Positions 32,772 to 34,362 of a stretch of DNA of 64,000 nucleotides are shown one piece after another. A model generated the notes under the pieces. That model was not told where the DNA came from. It saw nothing but the letters and a program-made list of their open reading frames with translations, and did no database searches. Position 1 is the first letter of the stretch; the number at the start of each line of letters is the position of its first letter. The translations under genes were made by a program, and so were the position numbers. The DNA comes from Myxococcota bacterium (GTDB lineage: Bacteria; Myxococcota_A; Polyangia; Nannocystales; Nannocystaceae): positions 96,001 to 160,000 of the forward strand of contig JBCCHT010000012.1 in assembly GCA_039028615.1 (NCBI GenBank). The letters run 5' to 3'.

Positions 32772-33089
32772 ATGAAGCCGGGCGTGCTTCCGAAGATCCT
32801 GTCCGCCAGCGTGTTCGGACTGACCTTGGCGCTGTTTTCGGTGTGGTGGTTCATGATCCGCGCACCGGGCCCGGCCGAGGTCTGCGAGCACATCCTGCAG
32901 GTCACCCTGCGCGAGGCGTCGGGCCAGGGCCTCAGCCCCGAGAGCCAACAGAAGCTGGTCGAGTCCACGCGCACGCAGTGCATCGAGCACAAGCAGGACA
33001 AGATCCAGCTGCGCGGGCGCATCAAGTACGCCACCTACGCCAAGTGCGTGATGGCGGCCCAAGACTTGCTGACCATCGGCCGCTGCTAA
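32772..33089 (+). CDS. small membrane-anchored protein with four Cys
   Basis: N-terminal TM; VCEHI, QCIE, AKCV and GRC; GAGG RBS. Confidence 0.65.
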   Translation: MKPGVLPKILSASVFGLTLALFSVWWFMIRAPGPAEVCEHILQVTLREASGQGLSPESQQKLVESTRTQCIEHKQDKIQLRGRIKYATYAKCVMAAQDLLTIGRC

Positions 33090-33095
33090 GCTGTC

Positions 33096-33488
33096 GTGGT
33101 GCTCGAGCTGCGGGTCCACGAGAAGGTAGAGCCCACGACCGAGGCGCGGCTTTCGGGCGTGGTCGCCCATCAACATACGCTGCGCGACGTCGTGGCCTGG
33201 ATGGCGGCGGCCGGGGGCACCCCGTCCATCGTGACGATCATCGAGCAGGACGAGTTCACCAGCGATGTCGTCGTCCGCGAGTCCGACGGCGTGTTCCTGG
33301 TCTACGACTGCACCTGACTGGGCGCGGTGACGGCGGTCGCCGTCTGGGCCCACGCTCCCAACGCCGACGAGCTGCTCGACGCGCGCATCAGCGCGGGATG
33401 GCGGCCCGTGCCCACCGCGACCGTCAACGGGCCCGTGATCATGGGCCACGCCGCCACCCGTTGTACGCCGCAGCTCGGCTGCCGCTAG
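33096..33488 (+). CDS. candidate selenoprotein (130 aa, in-frame UGA at 33315-33317 in a C-T-U motif)
   Basis: The 73-aa ORF ends ...FLVYDCT-TGA. The same frame continues for 56 codons (52 of 56 end in G/C) to TAG at 33486-33488, with a SECIS-like hairpin directly 3' of the TGA. Confidence 0.6.
33318..33352 (+). promoter_or_regulatory. putative bacterial SECIS element
   Basis: Lower stem TGGGC/GCCCA, upper stem GACGGC/GCCGTC, apical loop GGTC starting 17 nt after the UGA. Confidence 0.55.
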
Positions 33489-33609: not shown

Positions 33610-34362
33610 ATGTCTCGTTCTCGCTCGTTGCTGATGCTGCTCGCCATTCCGTTCGCCACCGCCTGCGCCGGGGGGACCCAGAACGAAGGCGCGGGAAGCC
33701 TGTCCGGCGGATACAGCGCGGGCTCGCCCGGCGGGGGCATGACCGACGGCGAGGAGCCCGAGGGCAGCGACACCGACCCCTACCCCACCGCCAACCCGAT
33801 GCCGGCCGAGGGTAGCGGGGATGGAGGCACCGACGGCTGGACCTCGGGGCAGGGAGACGACGGCGCCCCGGAGTGCTGCGAGGTCGCGCCCACCCCCGGC
33901 TGCGGCAGCGAGGTCACCGAGGCCTGTGTCTGCACGTTGATGCCCGCGTGTTGCCAGCAGGTGTGGTCCGCGGACTGTGTCGATCTGGCCGTGGAGTGTG
34001 GCGATCCGTACTGCGTCGAAGGGGGCAGCGACGACGGCGACATGGGCACCACGGGCGGCGACCCGGTCGAGCTGCCCTGCGACGACGCGTTCGACTTCTT
34101 CCCGCTCCACCCCGCCCCCGGCGTCGGCTTCGACGGGATGTTCAGCGACCCCAACGGCCTGACCTGGGTGCACATGCGGGCGGAGGGACCGGGCGGCGTG
34201 ACCATCGACGGCAGCTGGGTCGGAGTGGAAGGCGGCAGCCCCTTCACCTGGACGTGGAGCTTCGCCGGGATGGCGGCCGGGACCTGGACCTTCACCTTCA
34301 CCCATCGGGAGAGTGAAGGCGGACCCGAGCTGGTGCACGGGACATGTCAGAAGCAGTTCTGA
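33610..34362 (+). CDS. Cys-rich lipoprotein
   Basis: Lipobox ATAC; Gly/Ser/Asp linker; CCEV...PGC...CVC...CC...WSADC module. Confidence 0.7.
   Translation: MSRSRSLLMLLAIPFATACAGGTQNEGAGSLSGGYSAGSPGGGMTDGEEPEGSDTDPYPTANPMPAEGSGDGGTDGWTSGQGDDGAPECCEVAPTPGCGSEVTEACVCTLMPACCQQVWSADCVDLAVECGDPYCVEGGSDDGDMGTTGGDPVELPCDDAFDFFPLHPAPGVGFDGMFSDPNGLTWVHMRAEGPGGVTIDGSWVGVEGGSPFTWTWSFAGMAAGTWTFTFTHRESEGGPELVHGTCQKQF

Follow-up and report, generated by a model that had tools for sequence, protein, structure and literature searches.

An in-frame UGA, very probably read as selenocysteine, in an uncatalogued family of small bacterial proteins commonly split by gene callers

What is the role of the TGA at 33315-33317 on the forward strand of a 64,000-nucleotide stretch of Myxococcota DNA (the window): does it end a short gene, or does it specify selenocysteine (Sec) inside a longer one? 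The triplet directly follows ...FLVYDCT, the frame then stays open until the TAG at 33488, and 52 of the 56 codons 3' of the UGA carry G or C at the third position, just as a first-pass annotation of this DNA had described; 5' of the UGA the figure is 66 of 72. That annotation proposed a single selenoprotein of about 130 amino acids, belonging to a family that it did not recognise and that standard annotation would divide, and this core proposal is upheld by conservation of the TGA, the existence of Cys homologues, a covarying hairpin, and the presence of selA, selB, selC and selD. Judged from comparative sequence analysis, this is very probably a real selenoprotein gene in which UGA 33315 is decoded as Sec, and it would belong to a widespread, unnamed and uncatalogued family of small bacterial proteins that gene callers commonly split in two. 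The proposed length needs a slight correction. The single readthrough protein stands, and its start codon is more likely the GTG at 33099 than that at 33096, giving a coding sequence of 33099..33488 and 129 amino acids (130 if GTG 33096 is the start); the database gene call (P0002) also starts at 33099, and it ends at the UGA. The product is predicted to be one cytoplasmic alpha/beta domain with a putative Sec at position 73.

Conservation of the UGA codon extends far beyond the window. A search of 61 related genomes gave 14 matches, the window's own included, all with TGA at the site, and 351 genomes of the phylum gave 29 matches, comprising 18 full-length copies, three fragments and eight members of a distant sister family; TGA was found in 18/18 of the full-length copies. 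A GTDB-wide scan returned 436 stretches with the family pattern, 386 of which were confirmed as family, and TGA was present in all 80 of the best 80 of these 386. The family occurs mainly in Myxococcota, and also in Acidobacteriota, Gemmatimonadota and Chloroflexota, the named GTDB records including Myxococcus xanthus, Corallococcus, Nannocystis, Polyangiaceae, Kofleriaceae, Pyrinomonadaceae, Gemmatimonadaceae and one Chloroflexia genome. Among 251 Acidobacteriota genomes there were 11 matches, ten with TGA (the codon position was verified in nine of them) and one with the Cys codon TGT, and the one match in 401 Chloroflexota genomes was the query centre itself. A metagenome scan with a Cys homologue as query found one locus, of the TGA form. 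The first word-index protein search returned only two N-terminal halves, a single-protein scan of genome contigs gave no match, and phages, plasmids and viral contigs contained no match to the family.

With seven duplicate loci, the duplicate of the window (L023) and the fragments L038-L040 removed, 104 distinct full-length loci could be compared, and TGA occupies the site in all of them. The codon of L143 was left unparsed. Neither TAA nor TAG ever occurs at the site in the full-length loci or in the best 80 GTDB stretches. A nonsense mutation confined to this strain, or a sequencing error, is ruled out by the conservation of TGA across loci. Nine positions are invariant in 104/104 loci (D51, E52, U73, P87, L93, G100, W101, G116 and A118), and D56, R96 and G111 are each found in 103. 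The conserved Q50-D51-E52-x-T54-x-D56 segment (33246..33266), a turn followed by a strand, would lie on the same sheet edge as Sec73 according to the predicted meander topology. Around the site the family reads D-[TAS]-T-U-[LN]-[GA], with Thr directly before U in 102 of the 104 loci. The first-pass annotation had read C-T-U as a redox motif, but Cys at U-2 occurs in just three of 104 loci and is incidental. Two decayed gene fragments, L039 (G366) and L040 (G285), still keep both the TGA and a hairpin.

Could the UGA nevertheless be a true stop, leaving two separate genes of 72 and about 53 amino acids, the second starting at GTG 33327, or a tail that is a conserved noncoding RNA? Database gene calls do mostly represent halves (among 151 representatives, 70 are the C-terminal half only, 54 the N-terminal half only and 27 span the site), and the window copy has a GTG at codon +4. 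The comparison of loci tells against two genes. The downstream half is conserved in frame with the upstream half, the spacing across the UGA being fixed and gap-free, with P at +14 in 104/104 loci and D or E at -3 in 103/104. Half of the loci (52/104) lack an ATG, GTG or TTG anywhere in codons +1 to +5, which makes separate translation of the tail from GTG 33327, a possibility raised at first pass, unlikely. AlphaFold2 predicts one domain (mean pLDDT 93.2, pTM 0.86) whose strands are ordered as a four-stranded meander; residue 73 falls in the turn joining strand 66-72 to strand 76-83, at the tip of a beta-hairpin that a stop codon would, on this model, interrupt. Together with 43 known unsplit homologues, the exclusive use of TGA among the three stop codons and the Sec machinery of the carriers, these observations make a true stop highly improbable.

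If the UGA is read, which amino acid is inserted? In the 43 unsplit, site-spanning database homologues, a subset of the 193 proteins from both protein searches, the site is occupied by C in 20, W in six, R in six, S in six, G in two and P in one, with a gap in two. A single base separates UGA from each of UGG, CGA, UCA and GGA, and these homologues are known here as protein only. Some of the R and S rows are divergent groups, and a thiol or selenol at this site is therefore not universal. The first-pass annotation had asked whether homologues conserve the TGA or replace it with Cys, and both are observed. In the single genomic copy with a Cys codon (TGT), the hairpin is lost (-2.4 kcal/mol), while selA and selB are still in the genome.

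The Sec machinery is in place. The window genome encodes SelA, SelB and SelD above cut-off, its SelD being the Cys form, and a tRNA-Sec(UCA) scoring 68.6 bits, so that all four of the genes whose presence the first-pass annotation had wished to see confirmed are there. Of 45 genomes that carry the TGA form, 42 have SelA, compared with 219/351 and 39/61 genomes overall; the three carriers without SelA each have SelB over the cut-off, which brings genomes with selA or selB to 45/45, and tRNA-Sec was present in both of the two that were examined. As kin are not independent in these co-occurrence counts, we claim no P-value for them. The same genome (G000) holds five thioredoxin-like or ArsC-like UxxC genes, at C18:139362(-), C1:338912(-), C14:16632(+), C42:70173(+) and C65:40851(+) (L129-L133), with [GA]GU loops at +20 to +24 and NCBIfam scores below the curated cut-offs. 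Reading of the UGA as Cys or Trp by a route other than Sec, through a suppressor tRNA or a change of code, would fit the W found in six database proteins, and SECIS-dependent insertion of Cys by unusual tRNAs has been reported from some bacteria. The W rows, for their part, may be gene calls made under a code in which UGA is Trp. Against such a route, the only UCA-anticodon tRNA detected by ARAGORN is the canonical tRNA-Sec, ordinary genes here (sspB and the downstream gene) end in TGA, and the UGA form tracks selA/selB. It is a very improbable explanation.

Directly 3' of the UGA is the two-stem hairpin noticed at first pass, with the GGUC apical loop at 33335-33338 (+21 to +24), and it folds as claimed. 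The SECIS-like upper stem, of six base pairs, spans 33329..33344, and the lower stem pairs 33319-33323 with 33348-33352 (33319..33352 overall). The window hairpin, taken by itself, is weak evidence (z -2.2, 8/200 shuffles, for 35 nt; z -0.8 for 46 nt) and unconvincing, and so the case rests on comparison. Across 31 loci the upper stem is 95.7% paired, five of its six pairs vary on both sides and 0/500 shuffles reach that, while controls in which the stem was slid along are 26-77% paired. RNAalifold returned the identical 6-bp stem unprompted, and the covariation that had been suggested as a check is thus present. Some of the stem changes are synonymous on both sides, and in loci with this hairpin (type A, to which the window gene belongs) codons +5 to +8 are frozen at 95-96% one codon, compared with 39-70% elsewhere. 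The lower stem fared differently: it forms in the window copy but is 56.8% paired in the family, a level reached by 136/500 shuffles, and is not a conserved part of the element. Within the genome, a strict version of the hairpin follows 20 of 228,720 TGA triplets, and four of these pass a coding filter, the window gene among them. No meaningful Rfam match lies near the gene. The bSECIS model, in the part of PMC13188914 covered here, has a loop of 3-9 nt having G in its two leading positions, a stem of 4-16 bp located 16-37 nt from the UGA and an MFE <= -7.5; the window element has the 4-nt GGUC loop, a 6-bp stem, a spacing of 17 nt and -21.6 kcal/mol for the 35-nt hairpin, all within that model.

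The resemblance to the E. coli fdhF SECIS claimed at first pass is real, the GGUC lying at +22 in fdhF and at +21 in the window gene. Both systems, fdhF with its UGA140 and the present family, have an in-frame UGA, a hairpin directly 3' of it and a need for SelA, SelB, SelD and tRNA-Sec. They differ in that the fdhF protein is unrelated to the family protein, the conserved element of the family is only a 6-bp stem-loop, and about one member in three has a second hairpin instead, whose loop lies at +27. In the window gene, the complex of SelB, GTP and Sec-tRNA(Sec) would bind the GGUC hairpin, 17 nt 3' of the UGA, and insert Sec73, and failed recoding would release a 72-aa fragment. Sec recoding in E. 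coli has an efficiency of 30-40% according to the part of PMC4513850 covered, and the 72-aa fragment is therefore to be expected as well.

The second hairpin (type B) replaces the first in a sizeable part of the family. The +21 stem is disrupted in 35 of the best 80 GTDB loci (42% paired), and an overlapping 6-bp stem, 98% paired in these 35 loci, presents a five-base loop at +27 to +31 with G as its second base. It lies 6 nt downstream, and what was the GGUC loop becomes its 5' arm (type-B loci among L054-L123). Covariation of the type-B stem is slight, involving two pairs, and codons +7 to +9 of type-B loci are 97% one codon. When a marginally altered rule was applied, 36 of the 104 loci counted as type B, and they cluster in Myxococcaceae and Kofleriaceae on a tree built by a quick method, from which neither an origin nor a succession of events is deduced. 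In type-B hosts, the loops of the five other selenoprotein hairpins that were folded lie at about +20 to +25, and type B may thus represent a displaced SECIS or else a weaker signal. The boldest reading, which we put forward tentatively, is that the family is a selenoenzyme on a scaffold without a solved relative, with a chemistry new for Sec, and that Myxococcaceae, Kofleriaceae and other groups display a natural switch of SECIS register. If true, the switch would show how SECIS elements move within coding sequence and could be tested in Myxococcus xanthus, the two alternative hairpins being a natural test of the tolerance of SelB for SECIS position.

Is the gene part of an operon? To the first-pass annotation it appeared co-transcribed with sspB and a small 4-Cys membrane protein gene. 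Neither of these adjoins any of the 110 other loci, and roughly every second family member carries its own -10-like box just ahead of the start. Within flanks of up to 1.5-3 kb, none of the 110 other loci matched sspB, the gene for the 4-Cys protein, the acyl-CoA dehydrogenase gene or the downstream gene, and clustering of neighbours by BLAST revealed no recurrent neighbour beyond genus-level synteny in 111 loci; one apparent neighbour cluster of 26 loci proved to be the antisense frame of the selenoprotein gene and was discarded. A TA-N3-T box is found 5-8 nt before an in-frame start in 52/101 family loci, compared with one and one in the other two frames and 9/870 upstream control windows. 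A -10-like box so close to the start suggests a leaderless transcript, with the start at 33099, and the gene is probably a stand-alone leaderless unit, in so far as sequence can tell. In the window the putative extended -10 box, TG-n-TAAGCT (33084..33092), lies 6 nt before the start codon, and its TAA also terminates the 4-Cys gene upstream. Owing to that overlap the box is possibly a coincidence here, and in the window genome the gene may also be co-transcribed, through readthrough transcription from the genes upstream. A generic promoter and terminator scan found none. The upstream gene itself (32772-33089, forward strand) encodes a membrane-anchored protein of 105 amino acids that contains four Cys and matches nothing in Pfam or NCBIfam, the stop of this gene doubling as the -10-like box, and downstream (33610-34362, forward strand) a 250-aa putative lipoprotein has an acidic linker, a Cys-rich stretch and a weak Ig-domain match (E 0.03).

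What kind of protein carries the Sec? Neither Pfam nor NCBIfam (release 20.0) has a family for the window protein, and no model in them matches more than one of 36 members; thioredoxin, peroxiredoxin, glutaredoxin and ArsC profiles do not match the window protein, and no UxxC, CxxU or UxxT/S motif is present in the 104 loci. The thioredoxin-fold UxxC selenoproteins (Prx-like, TlpA-like and ArsC-like) share small size and alternation of Sec and Cys with the family, in which, unlike them, the Sec is predicted to occupy the tip of a beta-hairpin within a meander of four strands. Inspection of the family alignments by eye showed neither a lipobox nor a hydrophobic stretch at the N-terminus. Foldseek gave no PDB or viral match at E <= 0.001, and Rab-38, the only match in a PDB sequence search (E 0.07), was treated as chance. 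In the VIA wide structural search, the best Z was 6.2 for the window protein and 5.3 for a model of the sister family. The failed fold searches do not show that the fold is new. A natural Cys homologue retrieved only unnamed ESM Atlas clusters, at <= 0.77, and a sister protein retrieved unnamed clusters at 0.94, with at least 30 of them resembling it.

The sister family (L041-L048) is Cys-only and unnamed, carries the signature Q-G-E-F-H-H-D ... T-N-C-N-G-G and has no Pfam or NCBIfam match. It aligns with the Sec family in hhalign (97% probability over 80 columns) with Cys placed on Sec, that Cys is invariant in 8/8 members, and the predicted models have the same order of helices and strands. 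The sister family differs in its Cys codon, in showing no SECIS-type hairpin by eye, in having a further two invariant Cys and in its longer tail, and SelA is absent from six of its eight genomes. A Cys at the aligned site suggests that the reactive position is older than the UGA form or is shared with it.

As for function, our best guess, to which we give about an even chance, is that the protein is a cytoplasmic selenol redox enzyme. Sec73 would be exposed at the beta-hairpin tip beside T72 and the invariant or nearly invariant acids D51, E52, D56 and D70, and could serve as nucleophile in a redox enzyme of non-thioredoxin type, reducing a substrate of the peroxide, sulfoxide or disulfide kind. 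A C-terminal Cys, where there is one, or an outside thiol would recycle the Sec: 74 of the 104 loci carry a C-terminal G-x-A-(A)-C, in five a Cys occurs later, and 25 lack a C-terminal Cys. The Sec/Cys families characterised so far are mostly redox enzymes, according to the part of PMC13188914 covered. Those 25 loci, the missing UxxC and CxxU motifs and the lack of a clue from fold or neighbourhood all count against redox chemistry.

An unlikely but not negligible alternative is binding or processing of a soft metal or metalloid (Hg, Cu, Zn or As) by the Sec-containing protein, through Sec73 together with D51, E52 and D56, somewhat in the manner of the MerB-type SaoL. The invariant acids beside Sec would suit this, as would the H-H-D and the three invariant Cys kept by the sister family, and Table 1 of PMC13188914 includes selenoprotein families that handle metals. 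MerB-like SaoL and the CU-dipeptide selenoproteins, however, have a CU dipeptide and a conserved operon; the family has neither the dipeptide nor recurrent neighbours, and the MerB and SaoL models are unmatched. SaoL, SaoT and related proteins (Haft and Gwadz) and the deep-Sep DG, DW and DF groups, in the parts of those sources covered, are likewise UGA-cut proteins with Cys homologues and a function left open, the family differing from SaoL/SaoT and the like in having neither an NCBIfam model match nor an operon. Somewhat less probable still is a non-redox role for the inserted Sec, as the nucleophile of a hydrolase or transferase or as a tag on an OsmE/BLIP-like protein-binding module. Ser, Arg and Gly at the site in some homologues are compatible with it, and OsmE is the best structural neighbour (Z 6.2, rmsd 2.8, 81 aligned residues), followed by other interaction modules; OsmE/BLIP-like modules (PDB 4dm5, 3d4e) also have two helices on an antiparallel sheet. 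Sequence identity to OsmE is 12%, though, and a Z below 8 is within the background of this search; the best match of the sister model is a different protein, no Sec or Cys site is known in these modules, and retention of a costly UGA and SECIS over several phyla points to a chemical role. The selenol redox enzyme is the reading that we prefer.

How could such a family have been overlooked? It was hidden because annotation splits the gene. No family with this motif or a matching domain is in the 119-family Table 1 of PMC13188914 (2026), a motif search of four deep-Sep supplements (PMC12013277) gave zero matches, and the family was not found in BSepDB (PMC13326102) as far as that resource was covered, its family sequence table possibly lying outside the coverage. 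Full-text literature searches for the family motif, and for selenoproteins together with myxobacteria, also found none. The family was thus not found in those parts of the catalogues and literature that were searched. If so, the bacterial selenoproteome gains a family of some size (386 stretches confirmed in a single GTDB scan) that is without a thioredoxin-type motif and without a named or solved relative. The surprise is limited, as the decoding mechanism is established and new selenoprotein families are frequent. Its presence in cultured myxobacteria, including Myxococcus xanthus, makes both recoding and function testable.

The genome contains a further candidate selenoprotein, which would be its second, outside the window on the minus strand of contig C11 of G000 (L134/L136). 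This protein of about 1,030 amino acids has an in-frame TGA (UGA 235931; DVDL-U-SQFWR) followed by a hairpin with a GGUC loop at +21. It has an N-terminal membrane anchor, FG-GAP-like repeats, and a C-terminal TlpA-like CxxC domain. A search of 40 relatives at E <= 1e-20 revealed no close homologue of it, and the 119-family table of PMC13188914 has no such entry. The same genome also has tRNA clusters at C3:258280-258723, C23:6428-7170 and C27:171191-172216, which include a head-to-tail run of four Ser tRNAs and two arrays of mixed type whose isoacceptors are duplicates of ones located elsewhere, and these might be mobile-element tRNA arrays.
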